A program made the position numbers and the translations under genes. 64,000 nucleotides of DNA from Gammaproteobacteria bacterium (GTDB lineage: Bacteria > Pseudomonadota > Gammaproteobacteria > S012-40): NCBI GenBank assembly GCA_919902765.1, contig CAKKRP010000063.1:15112-79111 (forward strand), written 5' to 3'. Under the pieces are notes generated by a model. The model was not told where the DNA came from and made no database searches. It worked only from the letters and a program-made list of their open reading frames with translations. Positions 25,984 through 44,723 of this stretch are shown here, in pieces. The first letter of the stretch is position 1. Each line of letters begins with the position of its first letter.

Positions 25984-26059
<76 letters not shown>

Positions 26060-26096
26060 CCTTAAGGCGGTATCTGCCCTTCCAGTTCCCGGTTCC

Positions 26097-26173
26097 GCCC
26101 CGGTAGCTCAGTTGGATAGAGCGTCCCCCTCCTAAGGGGAAGGTCACCGGTTCGACTCCGGTCTGGGGCACCA
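26097..26173 (+). tRNA. tRNA-Arg (anticodon CCT)
   Basis: I folded the cloverleaf by hand. Acceptor GCCCCGG/CTGGGGC, anticodon loop CTCCTAA, T-arm ACCGG-TTCGACT-CCGGT, and CCA is encoded. Confidence 0.9.
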
Positions 26174-27790: not shown

Positions 27791-30547
27791 CTATTCGGCT
27801 TTGCGCGCTGAATTTTGAGCGCGTACCCGCGCCACGCCCCAGATGCCGCACAGCAATATCAATACAAACACTTCATAACCCCATGCCCCGGACGCGGTGG
27901 ATGGAGCGCGTACGGGGTCGGCCGCCACGCCTGCAATGGTGATCGGAAGATAAAATTCATCATATCCCGCCGCGCTTAAACGCAACGAGGTATCGGTGGC
28001 CACCCCATTGAAATTATCCAAGATAACGGCAAAATTCTGCGCCTTATCCCAATTCGAGGCATTGAATTGTAAGGTGTTTGCACCGCTGATTTTTACCACA
28101 CTGCCCATAATTAAGGCCGAAACATTGAGCGTACCCACCGGCGGTTGCGCCAATGCAACGGAGAATGTCGCAGTATTTTTTCCACCGCCTAATTTCAGCA
28201 TATGATCGCTCAGCACCAATTTGCGCGTAAAATAATTGAGCGGTTCCAATGGCCCCATGACTGCCGACGCGTAATTTTTGTCGCCCGCAGACCCACCCAA
28301 TTGCGAACGGCTATTATTGCCCCAGCCATATAACGTCCCATCCGCCACTAAGGCCAAACTGAAGTCATCGCCTGCGGCAATCGCAACGACGCTGACCAAT
28401 TGTTCATCCGCACTCACCATGACCGCTTGTGGTATCGACCGCGTAAGATTGGTACCATCGCCCAACTGCCCAAAGGTATTCTCACCCCAGGCCACAACCG
28501 TCCCGTTTGCCAACAAGGCGATACTATGCGCCCCACCGGCGGCCACCGCGACGACGGTCGTCAGGTTATAGCCCTGATCATCGATCACCGGTGCAGGTTG
28601 AGTCTTAAACATCTCCGACGCCGTGCTACGTATGACACCTAATTGACCTTTATCATTGGCCCCCCACGCCATCACCGAGGTGTTGTCCAATAAGGCGAGC
28701 GCATGCGACCAGCCCGCTGAAATAGCAACTACGCTACCCAAACTTCCTCCGCCGACCACGCCGGGTTCGGCCCTCGCTTGGGTCGATGCATCGCCCAACT
28801 GCCCCAAGTTATTGGCCCCAAAGGCTTGTACAGTGCCATCGCTCATCCGCGCTAGGCTAAACGACGCGCCCGCCGCCACACCGGCCACGCGAATTTTAAA
28901 GCCGAACACTTGCTGGGCCGCATTGTAGCCGCTCAGTGAGCCGTCACCCAATTGGCCCGCCGCGTTATCTCCCCAACTATAGAGTTTGCCATCTAGGGTA
29001 TACGCCAGGGCATGCGTAACACCATTGACGACGCCACCGACATTGCATAATTCATCGGCAATACAGTTATTGTCGCCCGGCAAGGGCTCGTACATGACGG
29101 CCCGTGGTGTACCGTCATTGATTTTGTTACTGGCGGATCCCAACTGCCCTTGGGCATTTGCGCCCCAACTGTATACCTTGGCAAGCTTGATAGCCTTGGC
29201 ATCCGTGGTCTCCGTTGTCTCTGCAGTGGCCGCGCTGAATGCAAACCCCGCCGACACCTGGGTCACGCCCTCTATGGGCTTGCCATCGGCCGCCAGCACC
29301 TCCCCCACCCACCAAGTCTGCGCATTGCTGCCCAACTGGCCGAAGCTATTGTCTCCCCACGCGGTGATGCTATTATCGGAGCGCACTAATAACGCGTGCG
29401 AGCCGCCGGCCGCCAATCGCCCGACCGTTTGTTCGCGTGTCAGCCCTGTAGTTCCGCCGCAATCACCCGTCTTAAACGGAATCAATACGCTAGCGACATC
29501 TCCGAATTCCGTACGTGCGAGAAATGTCACCTCGTATTGAAGCGCGCAATCTAGCGTACCGACGTGATAAACAACGCGTTGCGCAACCGTTTCCGCGCCC
29601 GCCACGACGGTGATATTTTTGGGTGCGGCTATCCACACTAAATCACCCGCCTTGCGGTATTCAAACGAGGTGCTGACGCTGGAATAATTGGGCACGACCA
29701 TAGCCGTGAACAGGGCCGAATTTGCAGTAATGCGTTGTATATTTGCTGCGCTAAAGGTCACAACCGGCGGCGGCGGACAAGGTTTAGTCGTAAATTGAAA
29801 CCCACCTCCGTTCACATCGGCCTTACCAGGAATTTTTACCACCGTGCGCGCGCCTAGGGTTGTGTTACAAGTCAACCCCGCCACCGGCACATTGATATTT
29901 TTCACACCCACACCGGCCTCAACTACGATGTCAGGTGTTTTACTTGAATTTATGAAGATCCCCGTATTACCAACCGTACCATACTCGACATAGAGGGTCG
30001 CGGCCAAACCATATAAGTTGATCGTCGATGAAAACGAGAAATCACGCACACCTACGCTGGCAAGCCGTTCATCGACAACGGTCACCGCAGTACAAGGCGG
30101 TGTAGTAAACTCTAAATATTGCCCAGCAGAAACTTGTCCGGTGCTATCCACCGTACCGATCAGACGAAACGTATAAGTTGTGCCACACAATAAGTCAAAA
30201 ACTTTATCCAATACATCCGGTTTACTAACGTTATTCCCGGCAAATATTATATCCTGCGTAAAGCGCCGAGGTGCGGTATCCCCTTTCACGCCATATTCAA
30301 AACGATGAATGACGGTAACACCACGTATATCGCCAGTCAGTGTAAGATTGCCATTCACATTAATAAAGCCCTGCAATACCGCGCCATATCGCGCCAACGC
30401 GGCGTCCGTCAGTACAATATCCGTGGCATCATTGGTCACCACCAATTCGCCAGTATTGAGCGCCGCCCAATTCAGCCCGGCAACCACCAAACCGAATACT
30501 GTGTAAAAAAGACGGTTTCTTACCACGACCCCAACTCCCCTCATCAT
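27791..30547 (-). CDS. Large membrane-anchored or secreted RCC1-repeat (7-bladed beta-propeller) protein with three N-terminal Cys-bracketed Ig/FN3-like modules
   Basis: 918 aa with an N-terminal hydrophobic signal or anchor. Three ~100-aa modules end in FTTPPC, FTTKPC and FKTGDC. Seven xWGxNxxGQLG repeats follow (AWGDNSFGQLG ... GWGNNSRSQLG). The C-terminus has a hydrophobic helix followed by a basic tail (VFVLILLCGIWGVARVRAQNSARKAE). Confidence 0.75.
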   Translation of the reverse strand: MMRGVGVVVRNRLFYTVFGLVVAGLNWAALNTGELVVTNDATDIVLTDAALARYGAVLQGFINVNGNLTLTGDIRGVTVIHRFEYGVKGDTAPRRFTQDIIFAGNNVSKPDVLDKVFDLLCGTTYTFRLIGTVDSTGQVSAGQYLEFTTPPCTAVTVVDERLASVGVRDFSFSSTINLYGLAATLYVEYGTVGNTGIFINSSKTPDIVVEAGVGVKNINVPVAGLTCNTTLGARTVVKIPGKADVNGGGFQFTTKPCPPPPVVTFSAANIQRITANSALFTAMVVPNYSSVSTSFEYRKAGDLVWIAAPKNITVVAGAETVAQRVVYHVGTLDCALQYEVTFLARTEFGDVASVLIPFKTGDCGGTTGLTREQTVGRLAAGGSHALLVRSDNSITAWGDNSFGQLGSNAQTWWVGEVLAADGKPIEGVTQVSAGFAFSAATAETTETTDAKAIKLAKVYSWGANAQGQLGSASNKINDGTPRAVMYEPLPGDNNCIADELCNVGGVVNGVTHALAYTLDGKLYSWGDNAAGQLGDGSLSGYNAAQQVFGFKIRVAGVAAGASFSLARMSDGTVQAFGANNLGQLGDASTQARAEPGVVGGGSLGSVVAISAGWSHALALLDNTSVMAWGANDKGQLGVIRSTASEMFKTQPAPVIDDQGYNLTTVVAVAAGGAHSIALLANGTVVAWGENTFGQLGDGTNLTRSIPQAVMVSADEQLVSVVAIAAGDDFSLALVADGTLYGWGNNSRSQLGGSAGDKNYASAVMGPLEPLNYFTRKLVLSDHMLKLGGGKNTATFSVALAQPPVGTLNVSALIMGSVVKISGANTLQFNASNWDKAQNFAVILDNFNGVATDTSLRLSAAGYDEFYLPITIAGVAADPVRAPSTASGAWGYEVFVLILLCGIWGVARVRAQNSARKAE

Positions 30548-31357: not shown

Positions 31358-31590
31358 GGATACTCCCCGGGAATTTTCACCCTGTTACTCTAAACTCTAG
31401 ATCATAAACTAATATTTTATAAATGCGAATTAAATATAGCGGGAGGTTGATATTTGCCGCGTAGATCTTCCCATTATTTGCTGTAAGTCAAAAATAATCC
31501 ATATATAACAACATGGTATGGTATGGCCTGAATCTTGATATAAGAACCGCTAGGTGCGTACTGCAAACGCGACGCTATGAGCAACTCAAT

Positions 31591-32190
31591 ATGTTATATC
31601 CTACTTTTCTGACCCGCCCTGCGACACACGTCGATGCCCACCACATCGTGCAACTCTTGAGTGTGTTATACAGCGAAACAGAATACCTCCCGCATGCCCC
31701 CGGCGATGTGATCGCCTCTCCGCAGCAACTGGCGGTGCGTATAGAGGCGGGCAACAGAACCGGCGGCGCCCCGGTATTCGTTGCCGAAGTTAAAGGCGAA
31801 TTAGTCGGTGTAGTATTTGGAAGTCGCGGCATGACAGCGCGCACGCGTCACATCATGCACGTCGTTATCGGCGTGTTACAAGCCCACTGCGGGCTAGGCA
31901 TAGGTCACGCCCTGATGCGGGACTTGGAAACGTCGGCCGCCATGCATCACCTACATCGTTTGGAATTGGCGGTACACAGCGACAATCAGCGCGCTATCGC
32001 ACTATATAAACATTTAGGATACGTCATCGAAGGCAAAAAACTACAATCGGTGTGCATACGCGATAAATACGTCGATGAACTAATACTTTCCAAGCTGCTG
32101 AATATCACCGAGACGGCCGTATCCGTGTCGGAGCGCACGCACGCGGCGATAACCCAAATGCGCGCCTCGCGCCAGAAAAAAACCGCATAA
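31591..32190 (+). CDS. GNAT family N-acetyltransferase
   Basis: Acetyl-CoA-binding motif region (VLQAHCGLGIGHALM ... AIALYKHLGY). The start is chosen at ATG 31591; the 26-codon upstream extension looks non-coding. Confidence 0.7.
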   Translation: MLYPTFLTRPATHVDAHHIVQLLSVLYSETEYLPHAPGDVIASPQQLAVRIEAGNRTGGAPVFVAEVKGELVGVVFGSRGMTARTRHIMHVVIGVLQAHCGLGIGHALMRDLETSAAMHHLHRLELAVHSDNQRAIALYKHLGYVIEGKKLQSVCIRDKYVDELILSKLLNITETAVSVSERTHAAITQMRASRQKKTA

Positions 32191-32199: not shown

Positions 32200-33357
32200 T
32201 TATTCCAGCGCCGACATTTGCAAGGTGGAAATATTTTCTCCTGCCAATTGTCGCCGCACTACCGATACATCGTCCGCGTGCAATGCGAAAGGAAATGAAC
32301 GGATATCGGACACGCTGGAATCGCCATAGGGTCTGTTGCAAGCGGAAACTTCATTATCCGCTTTTCCTGGACAACCTGAGGTCTGAAACGGTTTGCCGGA
32401 TTCGATCAGACTTGCGAGTTCGCCGGCCGCCACGCCGAAATCCACCACCTGCCCCGCCTCGTTAAACTGCATATCGCGCAGATCTCCACCCGCATAATCG
32501 ATAATAAAGCGCGCCAATTGCACGCGCCGCCAATGCGCCTGCGGCGCCGGCGACCAATCCTCCATCATCGAACCACGTTCCGGAAAAAACGCAAACATAT
32601 GATTATGACCGCCCAGATCGCGTATATGTTGCGCGACCTCCAAAATTTCTCGTTCTGTTTCGCCTAAACCGCAAATCAAATGCGCCCCGAATTTTTCCGG
32701 GCCGAAAATCTCTGCCGCCCATTCGATGGCCTGCCAATATTTTTCCCACGTATGCGGGCTGGCCACCGTTTTGCCTCGTGTACGTTCAAAGATCGCCGGT
32801 GTTACCGCATCCAATGCGACTGTAAAAATATCCGCGCCTAAATCGCGCAACACCACCAAATCTTGATAATCCATCGTCGTCGGATTCGACAAAATCGACA
32901 CCGGAATATGCGGTAATTCACCCATCCATTGGCGTAATAACACTACCGTGTCCGCATCCGAGTCGGGGTGGGTGATCATTGAAATACACATCCGTTCTAT
33001 CGCGCCGCGATCAGCGCCTTGTTTAACACGCGCTATGAGTTCGTCATACCTCACCGTGGGCCAATCTACCCGTATGAAATTTCTATCGGCATAATCGCGC
33101 GATTCCTCGCGGTGCCTCGCCAAACCGCAATAGCTGCAATTCGCCCTACATCCTTCCGGATACGTCACCAGCAAATTCAAACAATGCGTACACGAGGTAC
33201 GATACATCTGCCCTTGAATCAAACCCACCGTCGCTGCCGCTGCGGTCGATAATTGAACATATTCCGGCGAACGCAGGTTGGGTGTTTTTGCCATATGAGT
33301 GGGGCGATAAAACGCCACGGGCACCGCATCTGCGGCGGCCGTATTATTCAATTTCAC
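32200..33357 (-). CDS. Radical SAM enzyme, LipS1/LipS2-type candidate lipoyl-synthase component
   Basis: 385 aa with the CX3CX2C motif CRANCSYCG. It is the last gene of the LbpA maturation cluster and overlaps the upstream reductase gene by 14 nt. Confidence 0.7.
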   Translation of the reverse strand: MKLNNTAAADAVPVAFYRPTHMAKTPNLRSPEYVQLSTAAAATVGLIQGQMYRTSCTHCLNLLVTYPEGCRANCSYCGLARHREESRDYADRNFIRVDWPTVRYDELIARVKQGADRGAIERMCISMITHPDSDADTVVLLRQWMGELPHIPVSILSNPTTMDYQDLVVLRDLGADIFTVALDAVTPAIFERTRGKTVASPHTWEKYWQAIEWAAEIFGPEKFGAHLICGLGETEREILEVAQHIRDLGGHNHMFAFFPERGSMMEDWSPAPQAHWRRVQLARFIIDYAGGDLRDMQFNEAGQVVDFGVAAGELASLIESGKPFQTSGCPGKADNEVSACNRPYGDSSVSDIRSFPFALHADDVSVVRRQLAGENISTLQMSALE

Positions 33358-34414
33358 GATTCGATTCCCCGTAATATTCGTTAAACCCTACCCAAGCATG
33401 CCTCAGCAGCGCGTCCTGACGCGCCGGATTACCCCCGGCCTCTAATAATTTCCGACGCTGCAACGCGCGCGCAAAGCTGCCCGCATATTGGTCGCGCATA
33501 TCTTCCGCATAATCCTCAAGCGCATGCGAATTGCCTTGTAAAAATTCACTCGCGGCCTCGCCTGCACGTTCACCCGAGATTATTGCCGAGGAAATTCCTG
33601 CTCCGGTAATAGGATGGGTTAGGCCTGCGGCATCGCCTACAAACAGGGTATCGTTCATCACCAGTGTCGGGCGCAAACCACCCACCGGAATCAACCCGCC
33701 CGTGCGCGCTAAAATATGCGCACCTACCCTGCCCTCGTCGATTAAACGCGCATGCAGAAGATCCAACATCTGCTTAGCGTATATGCGTTTGCTGGCGCCC
33801 ACCCCCAGCCCGAGATTCGCCGTATCAATTTTAGGAAACAACCAAGCATAGCCCCCACGATAATCCCGCTCCAACCAAATATCCGTCGCAGCATGCGTCT
33901 GCAACAATGGAACGCGATATTGTCGTGCATGGACGCAGTTTAACGCTTGCATGCCCAACGCATGCGCAATACGCGATACGGGGCCGTCCGCCGCGACGAG
34001 TACACGGTAATAAATGTCTAATGATTGTGCGGCGACATTTACCGTAGCGCACTTGGTCTGGGAGTTTAATTTGATCAAATGATGCCCGGTTAAAATCTGC
34101 GCCCCCGCTGTCCGCGCGCGCGCGACAAGCGCTTGATCAAAGGCCGCTCGATCTAGCATCAGCCCGCTAAATTTCGTCGCCGTGTGGATGCCGGAGGGTA
34201 AATAATTGTGCATCTTGTCAACGCGTTGCACACGTATGGGCGCCGCGTGAGCATACGCGCTCATCGTCAACGGAATAAATTCAGCGCATTGCACCGGTAC
34301 GCCTACGACTTTTTTTTTATCAAGCGCTACCACTTGCAGGCCGTTCCGCGCCGCGCTATATGCCGCCGCGCTGCCCGCTGGCCCCAGACCGCAAATCAAT
34401 ACATCGGTATGCAT
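33344..34414 (-). CDS. FAD-dependent oxidoreductase, geranylgeranyl-reductase-like
   Basis: 356 aa with an N-terminal dinucleotide fold (VLICGLGPAGSAAAYSAARNG) and a GD motif (FVGDAAG). Confidence 0.75.
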   Translation of the reverse strand: MHTDVLICGLGPAGSAAAYSAARNGLQVVALDKKKVVGVPVQCAEFIPLTMSAYAHAAPIRVQRVDKMHNYLPSGIHTATKFSGLMLDRAAFDQALVARARTAGAQILTGHHLIKLNSQTKCATVNVAAQSLDIYYRVLVAADGPVSRIAHALGMQALNCVHARQYRVPLLQTHAATDIWLERDYRGGYAWLFPKIDTANLGLGVGASKRIYAKQMLDLLHARLIDEGRVGAHILARTGGLIPVGGLRPTLVMNDTLFVGDAAGLTHPITGAGISSAIISGERAGEAASEFLQGNSHALEDYAEDMRDQYAGSFARALQRRKLLEAGGNPARQDALLRHAWVGFNEYYGESNREIE

Positions 34415-34435
34415 AGCGACACAACCAACGCAAAC

Positions 34436-35533
34436 TTAGGCGCTGATCACAGGCACACTGAATTCCGCCGTGGCCAATGCAGTCTCAATCGCGGTGATAA
34501 AATCATGCCGCGTCAGCATCAACATTTCAGCCGGATACGCATCGAAAAAACGCTGTACATTTGCATACAATTGCGCCGCTGGAGTATCCTTTAACGCAGC
34601 TTCGAGGTCGACCACCATACGCCGCGGATTTACGAAAAAATCACCGATGATCCATACTTGTTTAATATGATTGCGTAAGATATCCACCGCCACCGCTACT
34701 CGCATTAACCCGCCTTGACACTTATAGAGACTGGTCAGGATCGGCGCTTCGCTACGCGGTCGCTGTACCCTATGCACCCATTGCGGCGTATCCATCGTCT
34801 GCAACGCGTGGTGAAATTTTGCGACTTCAATATCGTTCAAATCGACGGCCTCATCAAACGACACATTAAACGCGCTCGCGAATGCGCGGGTCAGCGCCGA
34901 CTTTACACTCAAAAAGTCGGGGGCTACGCCTAATAAATCCTTCAAATTAACCACGCGCTCGCGCGCCGACGCGATCGCCTTGCCGGTGAGTTTTTCCGCA
35001 GCGACCCGCAATACACGCAACATGCGTTCGACATCGAATTCCACCAACAACGTACCCTGGTACAAAATAGAATCACCGTCCGACGCGCCACCCGTACCGG
35101 AGATCTTACGACCCTGGACTTCAATGTCATTACGCGGACGGAATTGCGCATCGACGCCCAACTGCCGTATGCCTGCGGCAGCCGCTTCGCAAATGCGTCG
35201 CGCGATCTGCCCCATGTCGGCGGTGCCTAAGGTTTGCTTATCTACATATAACTCCCAGCCGATTTGCGCTTGATCAAAATAAATCGCGCCGCCGCCGGTA
35301 ATGCGGCGTTGAATTTCAATACCATGTTGGCGACAATAATCGAGATCTAATTCTTGTTCCGCGCTTTGGTGATAGCCCAATAACGCGCTAGGCAAAAATT
35401 GTAGAAACCGCAAGGTATGGGGTGTGGTCCCCTCCTGGTGGGCCTCCAATATGGCGTGATTGATTGCCATATTTTCCGCCGCGCGGCGTAATCCAGTATC
35501 AATGACGCGCCAAGTACGCATATTTTCGCTCAT
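34436..35533 (-). CDS. Lipoate-protein ligase, LplA-like, single polypeptide with a C-terminal accessory domain (sLpl(AB)-type)
   Basis: 365 aa with an LplA-like N-terminus (WRVIDTGLRRAAENMAINHAILEAH...TLRFLQF) and a later KISGTG motif. Confidence 0.8.
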   Translation of the reverse strand: MSENMRTWRVIDTGLRRAAENMAINHAILEAHQEGTTPHTLRFLQFLPSALLGYHQSAEQELDLDYCRQHGIEIQRRITGGGAIYFDQAQIGWELYVDKQTLGTADMGQIARRICEAAAAGIRQLGVDAQFRPRNDIEVQGRKISGTGGASDGDSILYQGTLLVEFDVERMLRVLRVAAEKLTGKAIASARERVVNLKDLLGVAPDFLSVKSALTRAFASAFNVSFDEAVDLNDIEVAKFHHALQTMDTPQWVHRVQRPRSEAPILTSLYKCQGGLMRVAVAVDILRNHIKQVWIIGDFFVNPRRMVVDLEAALKDTPAAQLYANVQRFFDAYPAEMLMLTRHDFITAIETALATAEFSVPVISA

Positions 35534-35583
35534 ATCCTTCCCTTATTAGTCAAGGCCTTCCCACTGCGCATTTTTCACGCCCA

Positions 35584-36699
35584 TCATTCCATTACGATTT
35601 TAATCTCTTTAAGTCGGCCCAGTCTACCCTGCGTAGACAACAAGGCGTCCACCTCCAATTGTAGACCAACTTCAGCGCCATCCACTATCGAACAACACGT
35701 AGGCGTCACACGCACGTGCCGCCCTAGCCGCATCGCCAATTCGACCACCCCTTCCGATGGATGCGCGACACCATCCAGACCCGCCATCACTGCGTAGGCG
35801 TCGATCTGCGCCTTAACGATGCCCGCTGGCCTGGCACACCCCAAGAGCAGCGGAATTTGCGGCAAGCGCATCCGCGCCAAGCGGAAAAACGCGGCAATTT
35901 CTGTAATATTCGGTATGCGATATGGCCGTTTAGGATTGGCGTAATAAGGCATGGCCACCACTAACACTAACGCTGAGGGGAGATGACGGCGCACGATTTC
36001 CAGCGCCTCAGGCTCACCTAAAAACTCCCCGTAATGCAAGCCCAATACAATATGCGGCACCACACGCATACGCGTCATCAATAAATTTTCTAACGTACGC
36101 TCAAAATCTTCCACGCCACGCCGCAGATGATACACTTGTGTGATGGTTTGTTGCGCGCCGATCACATCTAACATCGCGACATCGACCCCGGCGTCTTGCA
36201 TGGCGCGCGCGCTATCGGCATCCATCAACGCGGTATGCGCGGCAATCCGAAACATTGGGAAGGCGTCTTTGATACGCCGCACAGTGTGATAAAACGGCGC
36301 ATATTCCACTTCGTTGCGATGATTAGATCCGCCGGTAAGCAACATGCCTTGCGCCCCGTGCGCGATCTGCTCATTAACGACGCGCCATAAGTCGGCCGGG
36401 GTCGGCGCGGCATGCATAGGTTCCAAGATTTTGGCCTTGCAATGGTCGCATTGTAGTTTGCACCGGCCACCCGTAATGGAAATCGCGGGCCACGCATGTT
36501 TATTACACGCGGCGATCTCTGCGGTATGAAAATGTTTGAACGTCGGTGTATGAAACTGAATCGGTCGATTACTGTGCGTAGCGCGCGCTTGCGTTTGTAA
36601 AATATTTACTACATCGAGATCGAAGGGTATATCTTCCAAGCCCTCAATGCGCGCCAAAATTTCGTGCCAACGCATAGACGCGTCATGTTGTGCATACAT
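35584..36699 (-). CDS. Radical SAM enzyme, second LipS1/LipS2-type candidate
   Basis: 371 aa with the CX3CX2C motif CKLQCDHCK. It lies directly downstream of the GcvH-like gene. Confidence 0.68.
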   Translation of the reverse strand: MYAQHDASMRWHEILARIEGLEDIPFDLDVVNILQTQARATHSNRPIQFHTPTFKHFHTAEIAACNKHAWPAISITGGRCKLQCDHCKAKILEPMHAAPTPADLWRVVNEQIAHGAQGMLLTGGSNHRNEVEYAPFYHTVRRIKDAFPMFRIAAHTALMDADSARAMQDAGVDVAMLDVIGAQQTITQVYHLRRGVEDFERTLENLLMTRMRVVPHIVLGLHYGEFLGEPEALEIVRRHLPSALVLVVAMPYYANPKRPYRIPNITEIAAFFRLARMRLPQIPLLLGCARPAGIVKAQIDAYAVMAGLDGVAHPSEGVVELAMRLGRHVRVTPTCCSIVDGAEVGLQLEVDALLSTQGRLGRLKEIKIVME

Positions 36700-36711
36700 A
36701 CGCGCATACCT

Positions 36712-37149
36712 TTAGCACCCGCCAAAACCTTCGGCATCCATTTTGGCTTTGAACGCCACACTCGCCGCCGCACCGGTAACCAAATCACGCGCATCCGCCG
36801 CCCAATCGAAGGGTCTGATTTTCACTAACCACCCTGCGCCATACGGATCGTCGTTGATTAAACCGGGCGTAGAGGCTAGCACATCGTTGATCGCCACCAC
36901 CAAGCCTGCTACCGGCGATTTGGCCGGCCCTACCCATTTGCCGGATTCCACTGTCGCGCAAGATTTATTTTTGGCGACATCTTTACCCGCCTTTTTCGGC
37001 GTATACGCCACCAGTTGCCCCGACAGCGAACATGCATAGGAAGTCATGCCGACGGTGATGCTGCCATCGTCCTCACGGCGCGCCCACACATTATTTTCAA
37101 CGCTAAAATACAAGTCGTCTGGAAATTCGCAACCATTTACGCACCCCAT
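36712..37149 (-). CDS. GcvH-like lipoate-binding protein (LbpA-type)
   Basis: 145 aa with the GcvH fold signature: lipoyl-lysine context CATVESGKWVGPAKSPVAG and ...NDDPYGAGWLVK. No gcvT or gcvP is nearby. Confidence 0.85.
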   Translation of the reverse strand: MGCVNGCEFPDDLYFSVENNVWARREDDGSITVGMTSYACSLSGQLVAYTPKKAGKDVAKNKSCATVESGKWVGPAKSPVAGLVVAINDVLASTPGLINDDPYGAGWLVKIRPFDWAADARDLVTGAAASVAFKAKMDAEGFGGC

Positions 37150-37170
37150 ACCAGACTCCCTGTGGCGACT

Positions 37171-37560
37171 CTAAAAAGATAGCACTTTACCACAACTCAG
37201 TATCATGTCGGCGAAGGCCCCTCCACCCACTACGTCGTCGATCTCGGCAATTAAATCCAGTTTAGGATCGATTTCATAACCCGGCAAGGCGGGCGAGCAG
37301 ACATAGATACGCACTCCGGCGTGTTTGGCATCGCGTATAAAGTCGATGATTTTTTTGCCACCGTCCATGGCTACCAAATTTTCCGCCACACCCCGTTGCG
37401 CCAAGCGTACGCCTTCCATGGTTAGAAACAGCCGCACATCGGCATCCATCGCCGCCATCACCGTGGCCAAGAAAAACGGCGTCGCGCAGCGAGATGCCGT
37501 ATTCGGACCGCTGGTTACGACGATTAATACCGCCTTCTCATCACAGGGAGGAACAGCCAT
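37171..37560 (-). CDS. DsrE family sulfurtransferase-like protein
   Basis: 129 aa with a DsrE/TusD-like fold pattern (VLIVVTSGP...RCATPFF..., IYVCSPAL). Confidence 0.68.
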   Translation of the reverse strand: MAVPPCDEKAVLIVVTSGPNTASRCATPFFLATVMAAMDADVRLFLTMEGVRLAQRGVAENLVAMDGGKKIIDFIRDAKHAGVRIYVCSPALPGYEIDPKLDLIAEIDDVVGGGAFADMILSCGKVLSF

Positions 37561-37628
37561 AATTTTATCATGTAACGAAAAGATGATTCCACACGACTGT
37601 ATTATTCATTCGTTGCGGAAACTACCGC

Positions 37629-37659
37629 AAAAGCTGCGCGGTCAGGCCGCGCATCTTTT
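37629..37659 (-). terminator. Hairpin (terminator or attenuator-like) between the two DsrE-family genes
   Basis: aaaagctgcgcgg-tcagg-ccgcgcatctttt forms a 13-bp stem with 1 mismatch, flanked by A and T runs on both sides. It sits 15 nt past the stop of the 154-aa gene. Confidence 0.45.
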
Positions 37660-37673
37660 GCTTCGAACACTCT

Positions 37674-38138
37674 CTACATATACATTGCGATATCGGACTG
37701 CCCGGCGAATTCCAGAAAAGTCGCCGCGCCACCGTAATCGATACCATCCAACAAATCGCGATGTTTAAAATCGAATAAATCGACCGTCATCTGACAAGCG
37801 ATAAATTTCACGTCCGCCTCAACGCATAAATCGCGCAATTCGGGAATGCTGGCCACGCCTTTAGATTTGATTTTCTGTTTCATCATCGCGGTCATCATCG
37901 CTTGCATGCCCGGCAAGGCTTGCAGCAATACCGGCATGGGCATAGGCATGGGCATACCTGGATTGCCCAATGACGTTACTTTTAGATCCAACTTCTTTTT
38001 CAGCAAATTGATACCGTAGAAAGTGAAAAAGATCTGCACCTCATAACCTAGAGCTGCCGCAGTAGAACTCAGGATAAAAGGAGGGTAGGCCCAATCCAAA
38101 CTGCCTTTAGTTGCAATAATCGCAAATTTTTTGGCCAT
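37674..38138 (-). CDS. DsrE/DsrF-like family protein (DsrE3-like), with a Met/Pro-rich insert
   Basis: 154 aa. N-terminus KFAIIATKGSLDWAYPPFILSSTAAALG and C-terminus FIACQMTVDLF. The internal segment reads GNPGMPMPMPMPVLLQALPGMQAMMTAMM. Confidence 0.62.
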   Translation of the reverse strand: MAKKFAIIATKGSLDWAYPPFILSSTAAALGYEVQIFFTFYGINLLKKKLDLKVTSLGNPGMPMPMPMPVLLQALPGMQAMMTAMMKQKIKSKGVASIPELRDLCVEADVKFIACQMTVDLFDFKHRDLLDGIDYGGAATFLEFAGQSDIAMYM

Positions 38139-38220
38139 TCAACATCACCCGCTACGCTGCTAAATAAAATATCGACTAAACCGGCGCCCCGCCATGCGCA
38201 ACACCGGTTTAATAATTAGA

Positions 38221-38478
38221 TTAGGCCTTTTTGATCAAAAATACGAACTTTCCGGATTCTTGATTCGATTCAACCAAGGTATTGCCCGTCTGCTTGGCAA
38301 ACGCCTGAAAATCTTTCACCGAACCGGGATCGGTGGCCACCACTTTTAACACTTGGCCGCTTTTTAGATCCGCCAAACTTTTCTTTGCGCGCAAAATGGG
38401 CAGCGGACAATTTAACCCAGACGCATCCAACACTTGATCAAAACCTGACATAGCCATGCTCTCCTGATAGTAAACCAT
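38221..38478 (-). CDS. tusA: Sulfur carrier protein TusA
   Basis: Contains the CPxP active-site motif (LDASGLNCPLPILRAKKSL). The true start is probably the internal ATG at 38451 or 38457 (AGGAGA upstream). Confidence 0.85.
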   Translation of the reverse strand: MVYYQESMAMSGFDQVLDASGLNCPLPILRAKKSLADLKSGQVLKVVATDPGSVKDFQAFAKQTGNTLVESNQESGKFVFLIKKA

Positions 38479-38946: not shown

Positions 38947-40437
38947 TTGCGTGATCGCATTTGTGTCCTCTTTTTAGCATTGGCCCTCGGTAACCCATGG
39001 GGTACACGCGCCGGCGAAGGCGATATTCTGCTGCCCGATATCGGCGGCAACACGTCGCGCATGTCAGCGGACGAGGAACGTCGTCTAGGTGACGAGTTTA
39101 TGCGCCAAGTTCACCAACAAACGATGCTCATCACCGACCCGGAAATAGATGAATTTATCAACCATCTGGGCTACCGTTTGGTTTCCAATAGCGATTATAA
39201 ACGCGGAAATTTCCACTTTTTTGTGGTCAAATCGCGCATGATCAACGCTTTTGCCGGTCCAGCGGGGCATATCGGTGTCAATAGCGGATTAATTCTAACC
39301 GCCGATAGCGAGAGTGAACTTTCCGGCGTCATGGCCCACGAAATCGCCCACGTCGGCCAACATCATTTGGACCGCGCGTTCGATACGGCAGAAAAACTTA
39401 GTTTATCGACGGCCGGGGCTATCATTGCGGCGATCTTGCTTGGCAGTCGCGACGCGCTGTTGGCCGAGGCCGCTATCGCGGCAACCATGGCCGCGAATAT
39501 TCAAACGCAGTTGAATTTTACCCGCGCTCATGAACGTGAAGCGGACTTCGTCGGCATACAAATTTTGCAGCGCACGGGATATGATCCACGCGCGATGTCG
39601 ATTTTTTTTGAACGCCTATCGCAGAGCGATCGCATGTACGATAATGAAGTACCGGAATTTCTGCGTACCCATCCGGTCACTACCGATCGAATTGCAGAAG
39701 CGCGCGGACGCGCGGAGCGTTTTCTGCCATTAACAAAACTCGAAAACGACGGCATCATGTTTCATCTGATCCGCGCAAAAATCCAAGTTTACAGCGATGA
39801 CAATGCAAAATACGTCGCCAAGACGTTCGCTAAACAACTAGAAGATAAACGTTACCCCAATCGGTACGCAAGTTTATACGGCTACGCCCTCGCGTTACTG
39901 GGCAGCGGTCAATACGAGCAAGCGCGCAAACACATCGAACAAGTCATACGCGAAGACCGTGAACGCATCCCGTATGTCATCGCGCGCGCGCAAATCGATC
40001 TCGCCGACGGTAAGGCGGAAGGCGCGCTCGCCAAATATCGAGAGGCGCTCAAACTTAATCCGCGCAATGTCCCGTTAACGCGCTATTTTATCAACACCCT
40101 CATACAGACCGCGCACTGGCAGGAGGCCGGCACCCTGTTGGCGCAAGAGCTTGCACACCAGCCCGACAACGCCTATTTGCACCAATCACTGGCCAAGGTG
40201 GAAGGAGAAATGGGCCATCCCGGAGCAGCGCATCGCGCTATGGGGGAATATTACGCGCTAATCGGCCAAGCCACCGCGAGCTTGGAGCAACTGACACTCG
40301 CGCTACGCCAACCCGACTTGACTGCCGAACAACGCCTACAAATTGAAGAACGCATAAAACTTTTGCGTAAAGTCGTCATTGATGAAAGACAGAAATCCGC
40401 CCCGCCAGACAAATACATACATAAAAATATTTTATAG
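38947..40437 (+). CDS. bepA: M48 family metalloprotease with TPR repeats (BepA/YfgC-like)
   Basis: 496 aa with the HExxH motif (MAHEIAHVGQHH) and a C-terminal TPR-like region. The start is a TTG in the ORF track and is uncertain. Confidence 0.78.
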   Translation: MRDRICVLFLALALGNPWGTRAGEGDILLPDIGGNTSRMSADEERRLGDEFMRQVHQQTMLITDPEIDEFINHLGYRLVSNSDYKRGNFHFFVVKSRMINAFAGPAGHIGVNSGLILTADSESELSGVMAHEIAHVGQHHLDRAFDTAEKLSLSTAGAIIAAILLGSRDALLAEAAIAATMAANIQTQLNFTRAHEREADFVGIQILQRTGYDPRAMSIFFERLSQSDRMYDNEVPEFLRTHPVTTDRIAEARGRAERFLPLTKLENDGIMFHLIRAKIQVYSDDNAKYVAKTFAKQLEDKRYPNRYASLYGYALALLGSGQYEQARKHIEQVIREDRERIPYVIARAQIDLADGKAEGALAKYREALKLNPRNVPLTRYFINTLIQTAHWQEAGTLLAQELAHQPDNAYLHQSLAKVEGEMGHPGAAHRAMGEYYALIGQATASLEQLTLALRQPDLTAEQRLQIEERIKLLRKVVIDERQKSAPPDKYIHKNIL

Positions 40438-40645: not shown

Positions 40646-41005
40646 ATGCGTAAAGCAATGAAACTCGTCATGGCCGCAAGTGTCGTCGCCTTAGTTATGT
40701 CTGTGACGATTACCCCGGCTACGGCGGTCGCAGGGGATGTCGAGGAAGGCAAAGTGATCGCGTTTGATCGCCAAAAGGGCAATTGCCTGGCGTGCCACGC
40801 CATTGAAGGCGGTTCGTTGCCTGGCAATATAGGCCCGCCGTTGGTGCAAATGAAGTCTCGTTTTCCGGACAAGGCCAAATTGCGTGATCAGATTTTCGAT
40901 CCCACACGCAATAATCCCAACACTATCATGCCGCCCTTCGGCAAGCTCGATCTATTGACTGCCGAAGAACTGCGCAAGGTTGTCGAATTTGTATACAGTT
41001 TATAG
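40646..41005 (+). CDS. soxX: Sulfur-oxidation c-type cytochrome SoxX
   Basis: 119 aa with a signal peptide and a single CxxCH (CLACH). It precedes soxYZA. Confidence 0.85.
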   Translation: MRKAMKLVMAASVVALVMSVTITPATAVAGDVEEGKVIAFDRQKGNCLACHAIEGGSLPGNIGPPLVQMKSRFPDKAKLRDQIFDPTRNNPNTIMPPFGKLDLLTAEELRKVVEFVYSL

Positions 41006-41038
41006 TGCATAATTTTTCTGAACTCAGGAGATTGCTAA

Positions 41039-41509
41039 ATGAGTGTTAAACGTAGATCCTTTTTGAAAGGCACGGTGGCCACCAGCGCGCTGGGCGTTGC
41101 AGTAGGTTCGGGCTTGTTGCAGCCGCGTGCCGCGTGGGCGGCGTGGTCTGAAAAGGCCTTTTCAGCCAAAAAAGTCGATGAAGCGATTGCCGGCCTGTAC
41201 GGCAGTGCGACGACCAAAGACTCCAGTGAAATCAAACTCACGGTGCCGGACATCGCAGAAAACGGCGCCGTTGTGCCCATTTCGGTCACCACCAGTTTAA
41301 AAAATGTAGAGAGTATCGCCATTTTGGTCGAGAAAAATCCCGCGCCTCTGACCGGTGGTTTTAATTTCAGCGGTAATCTTGAAGGCTATGTCTCCACCCG
41401 CATCAAAATGGGTGAGACCTCCGACGTTTACGCCGTAGTGAAGGCGGGCGGTCAAGTATATAGCACCAAGAAAATGGTCAAGGTCACGATCGGCGGTTGT
41501 GGCGGTTAA
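41039..41509 (+). CDS. soxY: Thiosulfate-oxidation carrier protein SoxY
   Basis: 156 aa with a Tat signal (RRSFLKG) and the diagnostic C-terminal GGCGG. Confidence 0.92.
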   Translation: MSVKRRSFLKGTVATSALGVAVGSGLLQPRAAWAAWSEKAFSAKKVDEAIAGLYGSATTKDSSEIKLTVPDIAENGAVVPISVTTSLKNVESIAILVEKNPAPLTGGFNFSGNLEGYVSTRIKMGETSDVYAVVKAGGQVYSTKKMVKVTIGGCGG

Positions 41510-41535
41510 CAACTAATTGTAGAGAGGCAACACAT

Positions 41536-41853
41536 ATGGCAAGTAGTACGATCAAAATTAAAGCGGCATTGACCGGCGACATGACGGAGGTCAAGGCGTT
41601 ATTTCAACATGTCATGGAAACCGGTCAACGCAAAGATCCCAAAACAGGTGAAAAAATTCCTGCGCATCACATCAAAGAAGTGATTTGCCAACACAACGGC
41701 AAGACGATTTTGAGCTGCGACTGGGGTGTGGCGGTGGCAAAAAACCCTTACCTATCCTTTAGGTTCGGCGGCGGCAAGGCTGGCGATACGGTCAAGATTA
41801 GCTGGACGGACAACAAGGGTGATAGCGACTCAGCGGAAACCAAAATCGGCTAA
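41536..41853 (+). CDS. soxZ: Thiosulfate-oxidation carrier complex protein SoxZ
   Basis: The start is set at ATG 41536 (MASSTIKIKA...). It contains the typical SoxZ motif HVMETGQRKD and follows soxY. Confidence 0.88.
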   Translation: MASSTIKIKAALTGDMTEVKALFQHVMETGQRKDPKTGEKIPAHHIKEVICQHNGKTILSCDWGVAVAKNPYLSFRFGGGKAGDTVKISWTDNKGDSDSAETKIG

Positions 41854-41893
41854 GTCACTTCAACAGTTTAATTGCGTGGGAGGAGGAACAGCG

Positions 41894-42724
41894 ATGCGCA
41901 AAATAGGTTCTATTGTAGTGGCCGGGTGTTTGTTGGGCGTTGCCGCATCGACATTCGCGGCTCCGGAAGACGATCTCAAATCACTGCAAAAATTTTACAA
42001 AGAACGGTTTCCGGATTTAAAGCAAGATGAATATGTAAATGGTGTGTATGCATTGGATGCGGGTCTACGCGAACAATGGCAAGCCATCGAAGATTTCCCT
42101 CCCTATGAGATGGATATCGACGAAGGCAAAAAACTGTTCGAGACGCCGTTCAAAAATGGCAAAACATATGGCTCTTGTTTTGAAAAAGGCGGCATAAGCA
42201 TTGCCCACAAGTACCCATATTTTGACGCCAAAACCGGCAAGGTGGTCACTTTGGAACAAGCGGTGAACGATTGCCGCAAGACCAACGGTGAAGAACCCCT
42301 ACCGTGGTATAAGGGCAAGATCGCGCAAATCATGTCGTATATGAACTTCACTTCACGCGGCAACGTCATTAAGGTGGACATTCCTAACGACGCCGCGCGT
42401 CAAGCCTACGAACAAGGCCGTAAATATTATTTTGCGCGCCGGGGTCAGTTGAATATGTCGTGCGCACATTGTCACATTGACAATGCAGGCCGTCGTATTC
42501 GTGCGGATTTATTGAGCCCGGCAATCGGGCATGCCGCGCATTGGCCGGTTTACCGTTCCGATTGGGGTGCCGTAGGCACCTTGCAGATGCGGTTTGACGG
42601 CTGTAATAAACAAGTACGCGCCAAAGCGGCCGCACCTCAAAGTGATGAGTACCGCAATTTGGAATACTTCATCACTTATATGAGTAACGGCCTGCCGTTG
42701 GCGGGTCCAACGTCGCGTAAATAA
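41894..42724 (+). CDS. soxA: SoxA cytochrome c (single CxxCH seen)
   Basis: The start is set at ATG 41894 (GGAGGAGG SD, signal peptide MRKIGSIVVAGCLLGVAASTFA). It has one heme motif (CAHCH) and the conserved distal Cys context (FDGCNKQVR). Confidence 0.88.
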   Translation: MRKIGSIVVAGCLLGVAASTFAAPEDDLKSLQKFYKERFPDLKQDEYVNGVYALDAGLREQWQAIEDFPPYEMDIDEGKKLFETPFKNGKTYGSCFEKGGISIAHKYPYFDAKTGKVVTLEQAVNDCRKTNGEEPLPWYKGKIAQIMSYMNFTSRGNVIKVDIPNDAARQAYEQGRKYYFARRGQLNMSCAHCHIDNAGRRIRADLLSPAIGHAAHWPVYRSDWGAVGTLQMRFDGCNKQVRAKAAAPQSDEYRNLEYFITYMSNGLPLAGPTSRK

Positions 42725-42740
42725 CGTTCTCTATGCATCA

Positions 42741-42770
42741 AAACCGGCGGATAACCCGCCGGTTTTGTTT
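42741..42770 (+). terminator. Rho-independent terminator after soxA
   Basis: aaaccggcgg-ataac-ccgccggttt forms a perfect 10-bp stem and is followed by tgtttgtt. Confidence 0.7.
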
Positions 42771-43001
42771 GTTCGAAGTAGGTGGATAAGCCCCTATTGC
42801 GAGTTAGACGTATCATAAATCCTATGCAATTTGCGTCCATATACACTGCTCATTGCACTGCGATTTGGCACATCGTTGTTAGGCATTTTTCATTATTGCG
42901 ACCTACCCCATATGCACGGCCAGCACGGCGTAATATTTCTCTCTGCTACACGATAACAACGCCTTCGCTTCAAAATTTCATATATTACGAGAGGTAATCA
43001 C

Positions 43002-44723
43002 ATGTCACTCACTCGTCGCGAATTTTTACAAATACTGGCCGCCGCAAGCGCGGCGGGCATTAGCCTTCCAGGTTACGGCGTTGCCGCTGGCAAGGAAAAA
43101 GCGGACAGCGATATTTATGAGCTTCCGAAATTCGGTAATGTTTCTTTGCTGCATATTACCGACGTACACGCGCAATTGTTGCCTATATGGTTTCGCGAGC
43201 CGAATATCAACATCGGCATCGGTAAGATGCAAGGACAAGCACCCCATTTGGTGGGCCAACACTATTTGAGACACTATGGTATCGCGCCAGGCAGCGCCGA
43301 GGCGCATGCATTTACGCACCTGGATTTTGTTGAGGCCTCTAAACGCTATGGTAAAGTGGGCGGATTCGCCCATCTCGCCACGCTGGTCAAAAAGATGCGC
43401 GAGCAACGCCCCGGCGCCCTATTATTAGATGGCGGCGACACTTGGCAGGGCTCTGCCACGTCGCTGTGGACCAAGGGTCAAGACATGATTGATGCGTGCA
43501 AACTGCTAGGCGTCAAGGTCATGACCGCGCACTGGGAATTCACCTACGGCGACAACCGCGTCAAAGAAGTCCTCGAAAAAGATCTCAAGGGCCATATCGA
43601 TTTTGTAGCCCAAAATGTCTTCGATACCGAATGGAACGAACGCATCTTTACGCCGTCGGTGACCAAGACCATCAATGGCGTACCGGTGGCGATTATCGGC
43701 CAGGCGTTTCCCTATACACCGGTTGCGAATCCACGTTATATGATCCCCACGTGGAGTTTCGGCATACGCGATGAAGAAATGCAAAAACAAGTGGATAAAG
43801 TACGTGCCGAAGGTGCCAAAATTGTTGTCGTGTTGTCGCATAACGGTATGGATGTAGACCTCAAAATGGCCTCGCGTGTCACTGGCATCGATGTCATTCT
43901 GGGCGGTCATACGCATGACGCGGTGCCTAAACCCATCACCGTCAGCAATGCCAGCGGTAAAACCTTGGTCATAAATTCAGGGTCCAACGGTAAATTCTTA
44001 TCGGTGCTGGATTTGGATGTCAAAGACGGTCGCTTACGCGATTTCCGCTATCGTTTGCTACCGGTGTTTTCTAATTTGCTCGCGCCCGACCGCGAAATGG
44101 CGGCGCTGATCGAACGCGTACGCGCCCCATTTAAGGCCAAACTGGAGGAAAAATTGGCAGTTACCGACGACCTGCTGTATCGCCGCGGCAATTTTAATGG
44201 CACCTTCGATCAACTGATACTCGACGCGTTGCTCGCGGTGAAAGGCGCGGATCTCGCCTTCTCGCCGGGTTTTCGTTGGGGTACGTCACTCCTCCCGGGG
44301 GACACCATCACTATGGAGGACGTGATGAACCAAACTGCGATCACCTATCCGACTTCCACGTTGACCGACATGACAGGCAGTCGCATCAAAGAGATTTTAG
44401 AAGATGTAGCGGATAATCTTTATAACCAAGACCCCTATTATCAACAAGGCGGGGATATGGTGCGGGTCGGCGCGCTTAAATATGCGATAGAACCGAACAG
44501 TACGATGAATAAGCGTATTTCTGCGATGGAACTCAAAGGTAAACCGCTAGCTCTTAACAAAACATACAAGGTTGCCGGTTGGGCGCCGGTGTCACAACCT
44601 ATGGAGGGCGCCCCGATTTGGGATGTCGTGGCGGAATATCTACGCAACGCCAAACACGTGAAGATAGGTGAACCCAATGTACCGCTGATAAAGGGGATCA
44701 AGCAAAACCCCGGGCTCGCATAA
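43002..44723 (+). CDS. soxB: Thiosulfohydrolase SoxB
   Basis: 573 aa with a Tat signal (TRREFLQILAAASAAG) and metallophosphoesterase / 5'-nucleotidase-like motifs (LLHITDVHAQ, DGGDTWQGS, GGHTHD). Confidence 0.92.
   Translation: MSLTRREFLQILAAASAAGISLPGYGVAAGKEKADSDIYELPKFGNVSLLHITDVHAQLLPIWFREPNINIGIGKMQGQAPHLVGQHYLRHYGIAPGSAEAHAFTHLDFVEASKRYGKVGGFAHLATLVKKMREQRPGALLLDGGDTWQGSATSLWTKGQDMIDACKLLGVKVMTAHWEFTYGDNRVKEVLEKDLKGHIDFVAQNVFDTEWNERIFTPSVTKTINGVPVAIIGQAFPYTPVANPRYMIPTWSFGIRDEEMQKQVDKVRAEGAKIVVVLSHNGMDVDLKMASRVTGIDVILGGHTHDAVPKPITVSNASGKTLVINSGSNGKFLSVLDLDVKDGRLRDFRYRLLPVFSNLLAPDREMAALIERVRAPFKAKLEEKLAVTDDLLYRRGNFNGTFDQLILDALLAVKGADLAFSPGFRWGTSLLPGDTITMEDVMNQTAITYPTSTLTDMTGSRIKEILEDVADNLYNQDPYYQQGGDMVRVGALKYAIEPNSTMNKRISAMELKGKPLALNKTYKVAGWAPVSQPMEGAPIWDVVAEYLRNAKHVKIGEPNVPLIKGIKQNPGLA

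Follow-up and report, generated by a model that had tools for sequence, protein, structure and literature searches.

A TusA-LbpA2 lipoate-assembly operon apparently left by deletion of the sHdr core from a gammaproteobacterial sulfur-oxidation cluster

A 64-kb stretch of gammaproteobacterial DNA (contig CAKKRP010000063.1; hereafter the window, on which all coordinates are 1-based) carries the eight-gene operon tusA-dsrE2-dsrE3-lbpA2-lipS1-slpl(AB)-lipT-lipS2, which combines TusA/DsrE sulfur-relay genes with genes for lipoate assembly on the lipoate-binding protein LbpA. This is the gene order of a sHdr-LbpA sulfur-oxidation cluster from which the sHdr core and lbpA1 have been removed in place. 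Related loci, designated here by L numbers, have repeatedly undergone a similar loss, and the genes left behind continue to be under selection. With about even confidence, we propose that the core was deleted from a genome that is now devoid of sHdr, that this genome oxidizes sulfur by another route, probably rDsr, and that LbpA2 and TusA were kept for a role independent of the core.

LbpA has hitherto been treated as an obligatory sHdr partner in cytoplasmic sulfur oxidation. The presence of intact helper genes in the absence of the core suggests that they also work without sHdr. Loci of this kind point to lineages that are natural sHdr knockouts, where an activity of LbpA2 independent of sHdr can be sought; they also give a means of distinguishing what LbpA1 and LbpA2 each do. 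For genome annotation, they imply that lbpA, lipS1/S2, tusA and dsrE genes must not be counted as proof of an sHdr pathway.

Deletion of the sHdr core in place

Related loci were collected by scanning the window LipS1 against one genome per GTDB species, which gave 80 genome loci, mapped by tblastn, with a best LipS1 identity to the window of at most 66%. A scan of metagenome contigs for closer kin provided 64 informative contigs and no relative more than 69% identical to the window; the genome and metagenome sets overlap in some contigs. About 60 of the 80 genome loci carry the order tusA-(dsrE2)-shdrC1-B1-A-H-C2-B2-lbpA1-dsrE3-lbpA2-lipS1-slpl(AB)-lipT-lipS2(-lipY), and the gammaproteobacterial members of this canonical arrangement have the same divergent bepA upstream of tusA as the window. 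The hdrC1B1A-hyp-hdrC2B2-lbpA1-dsrE-lbpA2 operon has been described in Thioalkalivibrio (PMC6382920). Since the window order equals the canonical one minus the block from shdrC1 through lbpA1, the sHdr core and lbpA1 were deleted in place, immediately downstream of a hairpin that follows dsrE2. A preliminary description of the window, made from its sequence alone, had recognized the operon as the accessory gene set of sHdr-type sulfur oxidation, in agreement with this comparison.

In a neighbour-joining tree of loci built from LipS1, sLpl and LipS2 combined (unbootstrapped), the window is sister to the shdr-bearing L065 and L009. In L065, one of the two nearest relatives, the dsrE2 stop (2783) and the dsrE3 start (9008) lie about 6.2 kb apart, as against 113 nt in the window. 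No shdr remnant is detectable in this 113-nt gap, and no intergenic sequence homologous to it turned up when the gap was compared by blastn with all loci. A deletion scar is preserved in L003, a related metagenome-assembled genome (MAG) with a soxXYAB-bepA-tusA context. Between an intact tusA-dsrE2 pair and an intact lbpA2-lipS2 segment, positions 8386-9539 of L003 hold a frameshifted shdrC1 (residues 23-93), a 27-residue fragment of shdrB2, an lbpA1 interrupted by a stop codon and a dsrE3 that is spread across three reading frames; lbpA2, lipS1, slpl, lipT and lipS2 are all intact.

The dsrE2/dsrE3 junction, with the same 113-nt gap, is found at 99.8-100% nucleotide identity in four independent assemblies (L082-L085: ENA ERZ1292636; Logan ERR3858122, ERR3858126 and SRR32696680), and the contig name in ERZ1292636 suggests Hainich groundwater well H32 as its origin. 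The concern raised in the preliminary description, that an ordinary shdr operon might sit just beyond a contig break, is thereby settled: the locus is a canonical cluster minus one block, and the four assemblies agree.

The same description had reported no Hdr-like gene in the window, and every search upheld this. The queries were six Sulfuriferula multivorans proteins from locus L018, confirmed as HdrC, HdrB, HdrA, hyp, HdrC and HdrB-like; tblastn with these shdrC1B1AHC2B2 products over the 64 kb gave nothing better than E=0.7. The CxxCxxCxxxCP ferredoxin motif occurs in no frame of the window, the CCG motif is absent from window open reading frames (ORFs) of more than 90 codons and found only in short spurious ones, and no Hdr-like domain appears among the Pfam matches of the scanned ORFs. 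No dsr genes were seen in Pfam scans of most window ORFs. A type I sHdr-LbpA cluster is defined by the presence of shdrC1B1AHC2B2 in one syntenic cluster (PMC11094781, Methods 5.8); the window lacks this core and possesses an LbpA-lineage protein with its lipoyl-lysine as well as linked TusA and DsrE2/DsrE3.

A promoter-like motif, TTGAC(A/T)AAATTG-N5-GGGT(G/A)TAAGG, lies upstream of shdrC1 in the shdr-bearing L043 (2713-2829) and L017 (2442-2583). Because this motif is missing from the 113-nt gap of the window, the deletion that removed the shdr block may also have taken the promoter of that unit.

Recurrent loss of the core

The sHdr-less arrangement is not unique to the window and is encountered in about one in six related loci: shdr genes are missing between tusA and lbpA2 in 11 of the 80 genome loci (L002, L003, L006, L008, L010, L013, L014, L029, L035, L056 and L081) and in 10 of the 64 informative metagenome contigs. 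These loci do not group together in the LipS1+sLpl+LipS2 tree but lie at dispersed positions inside shdr-bearing clades, and they display four types of junction besides the scarred intermediate L003. The join lies between tusA-dsrE2 and dsrE3-lbpA2 in the window and L155, between tusA-dsrE2 and lbpA2 in L081, L002, L014, L090 and L159, between tusA and dsrE3-lbpA2 in L008, L035, L092, L106 and L110, and between tusA and lbpA2 in L006, L013, L056, L087, L088, L091, L010, L029 and L096. Together, the four junction types and the scattered tree positions imply at least seven independent losses of the sHdr core.

What remains after these losses is constant. The genes tusA, lbpA2, lipS1, slpl, lipT and lipS2 are intact in every sHdr-less locus, except that lipS2 of L029 (a MAG) is split by frameshifts, and tusA is always kept beside lbpA2. 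An intact lbpA1 is never kept; LbpA2, whose gene adjoins lipS1, is the only LbpA retained.

Two observations concern the surroundings of betaproteobacterial loci. A conserved gene of 307-311 aa upstream of tusA (L002:7008-7931; L018:108-1043) encodes a DmsC-like membrane protein (PF04976) and is retained with or without shdr. Genes for QmoA-like, QmoB-like (HdrA+MvhD), HdrC-like and HdrB-like (CCG) proteins lie at L029:1732-7017 (minus strand) and L010:8-2449, 2-5 kb upstream of sHdr-less tusA-lbpA2 modules. They resemble the QmoAB-HdrCB set found alongside APS reductase in organisms that oxidize sulfur and are not an sHdr; as they form such a set and have no counterpart in the window, they were rejected as a replacement partner.

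Selection on the retained genes

Between pairs of sHdr-less loci from clades whose diversification followed the loss, the ratio of non-synonymous to synonymous substitution rates (dN/dS) of the retained genes is 0-0.14 (L013/L056), 0.05-0.18 at dS ~1 (L006/L013), 0.04-0.19 (L010/L029) and 0.11-0.37 (L008/L035), on a par with the 0.01-0.24 of shdr-bearing control pairs. Relative-rate, invariant-residue and simulation tests were used for the window because its dS is saturated. In a Tajima relative-rate test, the module has accumulated 243 window-specific amino-acid changes against 91 specific to L065 (p ~0), with a similar outcome for other sisters and outgroups. The adjacent bepA has no rate excess (38 vs 28, 29 vs 24 and 37 vs 35), and the window, L065 and L009 have similar GC contents (0.51-0.53), so that the faster evolution is confined to the module and has no compositional cause. 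L081 is accelerated like the window; L003, L008 and L013 are not.

Of 544 residues at which no shdr-linked orthologue varies, the window keeps 530 (97.4%); the replacements are mostly conservative, and the window substitutions sit at variable positions. Stops or frameshifts are entirely absent from the 1,990 codons of the module. In a simulation, the excess of about 150 non-synonymous changes would, if neutral, have been accompanied by about 7 premature stops, and the probability of observing none is ~0.0015 with indels ignored. The intact ORFs, the kept invariant residues and the improbable lack of stops indicate that selection on the window module is relaxed or shifted, not absent, and the surviving genes are probably still functional.

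Genes of the operon

Pfam and NCBIfam profiles were applied to the operon proteins and Pfam to most remaining window ORFs, all larger ones included. The preliminary description had listed eight co-directional minus-strand genes, overlapping or separated by 113 nt or less; all eight ORFs lie where it placed them, within 32200-38478 (Table 1), with successive spacings from tusA to lipS2 of 82, 113, 21, 12, 50 and 21 nt before the overlapping final pair. The profiles bore out its identifications as TusA, DsrE-like, GcvH-like, radical SAM, LplA-like and geranylgeranyl-reductase (GGR)-like proteins. None of the catalytic motifs is missing: the proteins have CPLP, the cysteines of DsrE, the lipoyl-lysine, CX3CX2C in both radical SAM enzymes, RKISG in the ligase and the FAD-binding GxGxxG.

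Table 1. Features of the operon and its immediate surroundings in the window
Feature	Position	Strand	Basis
GNAT acetyltransferase gene, convergent; ends the operon, not part of the system	31513-32190	+	PF00583
lipS2, radical SAM lipoyl synthase subunit (CRANCSYC)	32200-33357	-	best NCBIfam match NF053743; overlaps lipT by 14 nt
lipT, FAD oxidoreductase of the GGR family	33344-34414	-	TIGR02032, 194 bits vs 158.8
slpl(AB), lipoate/octanoate:protein ligase with fused C-terminal LplB domain	34436-35533	-	PF21948, NF053749
lipS1, radical SAM lipoyl synthase subunit (CKLQCDHC)	35584-36699	-	best NCBIfam match NF053742
lbpA (LbpA2 type)	36712-37149	-	PF01597; lipoyl-lysine in VESGKW
dsrE3-type gene (129 aa)	37171-37560	-	DsrE family PF02635, 67.6 bits
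deletion junction, 113 nt	37561-37673	-	synteny; ~6.2 kb in relatives
GC-rich hairpin, interrupted 14-bp stem	37627-37661	-	directly after dsrE2
dsrE2 (154 aa)	37674-38138	-	NCBIfam equivalog NF047629, 282 bits vs cutoff 210, full length
tusA	38221-38478	-	PF01206, 85 bits; CPLP active-site motif
bepA-like M48 peptidase/TPR gene, divergent	38947-40437	+	PF01435 + TPR
soxXYZAB without soxCD	40646-44723	+	Pfam; starts 2.2 kb from tusA
soxX	40646-41005	+	Pfam
soxY	41039-41509	+	Pfam
soxZ	41536-41853	+	Pfam; SoxZ mapped from L084 call
soxA	to 42724	+	Pfam
soxB	43002-44723	+	Pfam

Gene callers on the four other assemblies start tusA at 38451 (76 aa); its product is 62-78% identical to TusA of shdr clusters and keeps 31 of 32 invariant positions. 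DsrE2 also matches PF13686 (E=4e-52; 46/48 invariant positions). The 129-aa DsrE protein, whose nearest structure is 3MC3 and which keeps all 21 invariant positions, is 54-71% identical to the DsrE encoded between lbpA1 and lbpA2 in related clusters and is orthologous to that of Thioalkalivibrio-type clusters; synteny with the Thioalkalivibrio lbpA1-dsrE-lbpA2 arrangement points to the DsrE3B subtype.

The GcvH-like protein scores below both GcvH cutoffs (TIGR00527, 82 vs 115.85 bits; NF002270, 114.5 vs 117 bits). In a tree it falls inside the LbpA2 clade, separate from LbpA1, with Escherichia coli GcvH as outgroup to all LbpA, which disposes of the possibility, foreseen in the preliminary description, of a canonical glycine-cleavage H protein. 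It is 60-76% identical to LbpA2 of shdr clusters, with which it has the SCATVESGKWVGPAK signature in common, and keeps 39 of 40 invariant positions. Neither gcvT nor gcvP is among the Pfam matches of the scanned window ORFs. A PDB sequence search for a solved LbpA returned ordinary GcvH entries only and no structural discriminator.

Both radical SAM proteins find their best matches in the lipoyl synthase profiles, below the curated cutoffs: LipS1 against NF053742 (E=1e-58, 199 bits; cutoff 230) and LipS2 against NF053743 (E=3e-55, 188 bits; cutoff 270). Models of the BioB, LipA and HemN types score less than 43 bits against either protein, so that the BioB or HemN membership considered at the outset does not apply. 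LipS1 and LipS2 are 58-66% and 67-80% identical to their shdr-linked counterparts and keep 105/107 and 156/162 invariant positions, respectively. In sLpl(AB), PF21948 covers residues 18-219 (E=5e-50) and the LplB profile NF053749 residues 270-353 (E=9e-14), and all 62 invariant positions are kept. The GGR-family flavoprotein (70/72 invariant positions) is assigned as LipT because its gene is placed between slpl and lipS2, as in Thioalkalivibrio K90mix (PMC10332631). The order lipS1-slpl(AB)-lipT-lipS2 equals the experimentally validated K90mix set (PMC10332631), and LipS1, sLpl and LipS2 are 59-75% identical to those of Thioalkalivibrio L036 and L044, LipT about 50%. Taken together, the four lipoate-assembly proteins keep 393 of 403 invariant residues.

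The hairpin after dsrE2

The 113-nt gap folds with -38.9 kcal/mol (z = -3.8), and none of 200 shuffles folds as well. On the coding strand the hairpin is followed by no run of five or more Us, which is why a terminator scan reports it on the opposite strand only. Relatives have a strong hairpin rich in GC right after the dsrE2 stop, in many cases with the form of a textbook terminator, both where shdr is present (L060, L017, L062 and L069) and where it is not (L003, L081 and L155). Since it is found there in relatives with and without shdr, the hairpin is the ancestral boundary of a tusA-dsrE2 unit, conserved by position and not by sequence. The preliminary description had supposed that a hairpin might split tusA and dsrE3 from the remaining genes: the hairpin is real and does mark a unit boundary, and the gene beside tusA is dsrE2, not dsrE3 (NF047629). 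A dispersed REP-like repeat was also considered and rejected, as the site matches only itself in the window.

A possible role without sHdr, and alternatives

In the route that we propose, the soxCD-less Sox system would leave sulfane sulfur on SoxYZ, and this sulfur would be imported and carried in the cytoplasm by TusA, DsrE2 and the DsrE3-type protein. By analogy with orthologues, sLpl(AB) would attach octanoate or lipoate to the VESGKW lysine of LbpA2, LipS2 would insert sulfur at C8 and LipS1 at C6, and LipT would supply electrons to both. The enzyme oxidizing the sulfane sulfur would be encoded outside the window and would probably be rDsr. According to experimental work on orthologues, sLpl(AB) loads LbpA, the sulfur atoms at C8 and C6 are introduced by LipS2 and LipS1, respectively, and LipT has been proposed to donate the electrons (PMC10332631). 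TusA receives sulfane sulfur from DsrE3B, Aquifex TusA co-purifies with DsrE, LbpA and sHdr proteins, and a TusA-LbpA interaction has been reported (PMC11094781). The constant co-retention of tusA with lbpA2 suggests that the two proteins form a sulfur or redox couple.

Because published hdr losses fall in rDsr-positive lineages (PMC6397845, PMC6382920), the genome most probably lost sHdr altogether and uses rDsr; the decay of lbpA1 and dsrE3 after the deletion in L003 likewise argues for a loss of sHdr. A broader idea, to which we give clearly less than even confidence, is that LbpA2 is not specific to sHdr and, with TusA and a private lipoylation machinery, constitutes a self-standing lipoate/sulfane-sulfur module serving another oxidoreductase. 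Its partner could then, just as tentatively, be the rDsr pathway or a lipoamide-dependent step of persulfide reduction or oxidation. Such a module would explain why these genes survived repeated independent deletions of the core under purifying selection.

Several points weigh against the proposal of a lost core and a retained role. We know of no experimental demonstration of an sHdr-independent function of LbpA, and sLpl(AB) is reported to be LbpA-specific. The window module evolves about 2.7 times faster than its shdr-linked sisters, which possibly reflects early decay and not a new role, and saturation of dS against all relatives leaves the window's own branch without a dN/dS value. The trees are neighbour-joining, without bootstrap and unrooted. 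The Hdr search covered the 64-kb window, which leaves room for an unlinked or second shdr cluster in the rest of the genome, and published surveys often place accessory genes away from shdr: of 397 shdr clusters, 302 have tusA linked and 199 contain dsrE2 (PMC11094781).

The preliminary description had proposed that either the sHdr core is encoded elsewhere or LbpA serves another partner, and we consider this choice correctly framed. If a second or relocated copy of the core were present elsewhere, the operon would supply holo-LbpA2 and sulfur carriers to a canonical system in trans. We judge this rather unlikely: the frequent unlinking of accessory genes in surveys (PMC11094781) is in its favor, and in sHdr-less clades lbpA2 and the lip genes are as strongly constrained by purifying selection as one would expect of a complete pathway, but synteny shows removal from an ancestral site and not to a never-linked state, and no assembly gave two loci among the 80 genome loci. 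Moreover, lbpA1 is always lost with shdr, and the lbpA1 and dsrE3 pseudogenes of L003 are unexpected if an sHdr needed them. That same decay at L003, and the module-specific acceleration in the window (243 vs 91, with no excess in bepA) and in L081, would fit instead a remnant whose pathway was killed by the deletion and whose functionless genes are just not yet disrupted. Such a remnant is improbable in view of the absence of stops and frameshifts from 1,990 codons where neutrality predicts about 7 stops (P ~0.0015), the 97.4% of invariant residues kept with mostly conservative replacements, the dN/dS of 0.05-0.19 over dS ~1 in other sHdr-less clades and the persistence of the same gene set through at least seven independent losses.

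It is more doubtful still that LbpA2 acts like GcvH of Bacillus, as a scaffold on which sLpl(AB) and LipS1/S2 build lipoate to be passed to other lipoyl proteins, and no less doubtful that tusA and the dsrE genes were meanwhile kept for unrelated sulfur trafficking. Such a relay could be imagined since 58% of the bacteria with LipS1/S2 have no sHdr, so that in other organisms the pathway serves general lipoylation (PMC10332631), since loci of the Thioalkalivibrio paradoxus type (L071, L136) keep lipS1-slpl-lipT-lipS2 without lbpA and with a second LplA-family gene adjoining, and since the sole LbpA ever retained is the LbpA2 encoded next to lipS1. It is opposed by the lack of an amidotransferase-like gene among the scanned window ORFs, by the report that sLpl(AB) does not recognize lipoyl domains of organisms without sHdr-LbpA (PMC10332631) and by the presence of tusA beside lbpA2 in every sHdr-less locus, which points to sulfur trafficking and not to cofactor supply. 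The idea that the sHdr-less order is ancestral, or its junction an assembly artefact, is effectively refuted: nothing positive was found for it beyond the trees being unrooted and the window being one sequence, and both versions were rejected on account of the L003 scar, the nesting of sHdr-less loci with differing junctions in shdr-bearing clades and the 99.8-100% match of four independent assemblies across the junction.

Comparison with known systems

In the type I shdr-lbpA clusters of Thioalkalivibrio, Ectothiorhodospira and Sulfuriferula, hdrC1B1A-hyp-hdrC2B2-lbpA1-dsrE-lbpA2 is followed by lipS1-slpl(AB)-lipT-lipS2 (Cao 2018; Berben 2019; Tanabe 2023, 2024). The window has tusA, dsrE2, dsrE3, lbpA2, lipS1, slpl(AB), lipT and lipS2 in the same order and orientation, with the divergent bepA, the hairpin after dsrE2 and 52-80% amino-acid identity to the nearest shdr-bearing relative; it differs in having neither the six shdr genes nor lbpA1, in lacking lipY after lipS2 and in the faster evolution of its retained proteins.

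The closest precedent is Sulfuricella and the 'Sulfuricellaceae' (Watanabe et al. 2019, PMC6397845), in which the hdrCBAhyphdrCB cluster is missing and its conserved flanks are directly adjacent, read by the authors as an evolutionary loss in a dsr-bearing lineage. These organisms differ from the present case in being Betaproteobacteria; the text of the paper is silent on tusA, lbpA2 and lip genes among the retained flanks, and does not analyze selection on retained genes or the recurrence of loss. A search for the module in the complete Sulfuricella genome, made with L002 LipS1, gave no match on a contig of more than 1 Mb among the best 120 homologues. Thioalkalivibrio paradoxus ARh1 and T. 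nitratireducens ARhD1 (Berben et al. 2019, PMC6382920) are, like the presumed host of the window, gammaproteobacterial sulfur oxidizers with a truncated sox and no hdr, and rely on a complete rDsr. They also lack lbpA1-dsrE-lbpA2, whereas the window keeps lbpA2, dsrE3, dsrE2 and tusA. Loci of the T. paradoxus type (L071:9150-14600, L136:5551-8849 and L073) carry lipS1-slpl-lipT-lipS2 without lbpA or tusA and, directly upstream, a second divergent LplA-family gene whose product is 38-41% identical to sLpl; this may be a LipL/LipM-like transferase, a hint of repurposing for general lipoylation.

LipS1/S2 and a ligase also occur without sHdr in organisms that do not oxidize sulfur (Tanabe et al. 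2023, PMC10332631), mostly in other phyla and in other gene orders. The window module, in contrast, is demonstrably derived from a shdr cluster and still linked to tusA, dsrE genes and sox. In the per-phylum tables of that study, LbpA-positive genomes outnumber sHdr-positive ones, a difference that is not taken up in its discussion (PMC10332631). All gene families dealt with here are known, and the in-place loss of hdr has its 2019 precedent in Sulfuricella. In the literature examined we did not find described the repeated independent excision of the sHdr core and LbpA1 from the proteobacterial cluster, nor the finding that TusA, LbpA2 and the dedicated lipoylation genes survive every such loss and remain constrained by purifying selection. 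We likewise found no description there of the window, an example that arose independently and evolves fast yet is intact.

Surroundings and other features of the window

Pfam confirms the boundaries reported in the preliminary description, namely a divergent bepA-like gene, a convergent GNAT gene and a nearby soxCD-less sox cluster. More than 20 loci, with shdr or without, have bepA running divergently from tusA, and this gene is the conserved upstream neighbour in gammaproteobacterial shdr clusters. The sox-bepA-tusA context recurs in L003, L006, L013, L056 and L088. The GNAT gene lies 9 nt from the lipS2 stop; related loci do not have it here, and in them lipS2 is usually followed by lipY.

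Elsewhere in the window, Pfam identifies flagellar, chemotaxis, RCC1-repeat, GST, lptFG, pepA, Pil-Chp, gshA and apbE genes. Two ORFs have no Pfam match: one of 71 aa between soxA and soxB (42782-42997, plus strand) and one of 443 aa after pepA (48947-50278, plus strand). An Rfam scan of the window found two tRNAs alone, with no credible match in the tusA leader or the 113-nt gap; these are tRNA-Ala(CGC) and tRNA-Arg(CCT) at 25984-26173 (plus strand), between flgN and a second flgE-like gene (26199-27392) that is distinct from the main flgE (19217-20602). Between the flagellar genes and the GST gene, a minus-strand gene (27791-30547) encodes a 918-aa protein with N-terminal repeated modules and a strong RCC1-like repeat domain (PF25390, E=2e-103). 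A Pil-Chp-type chemosensory cluster (50290-59765, minus strand) encodes a ChpA-like hybrid histidine kinase of 1705 aa (Hpt, HATPase, CheW and receiver domains) and a PilJ-type methyl-accepting chemotaxis protein.

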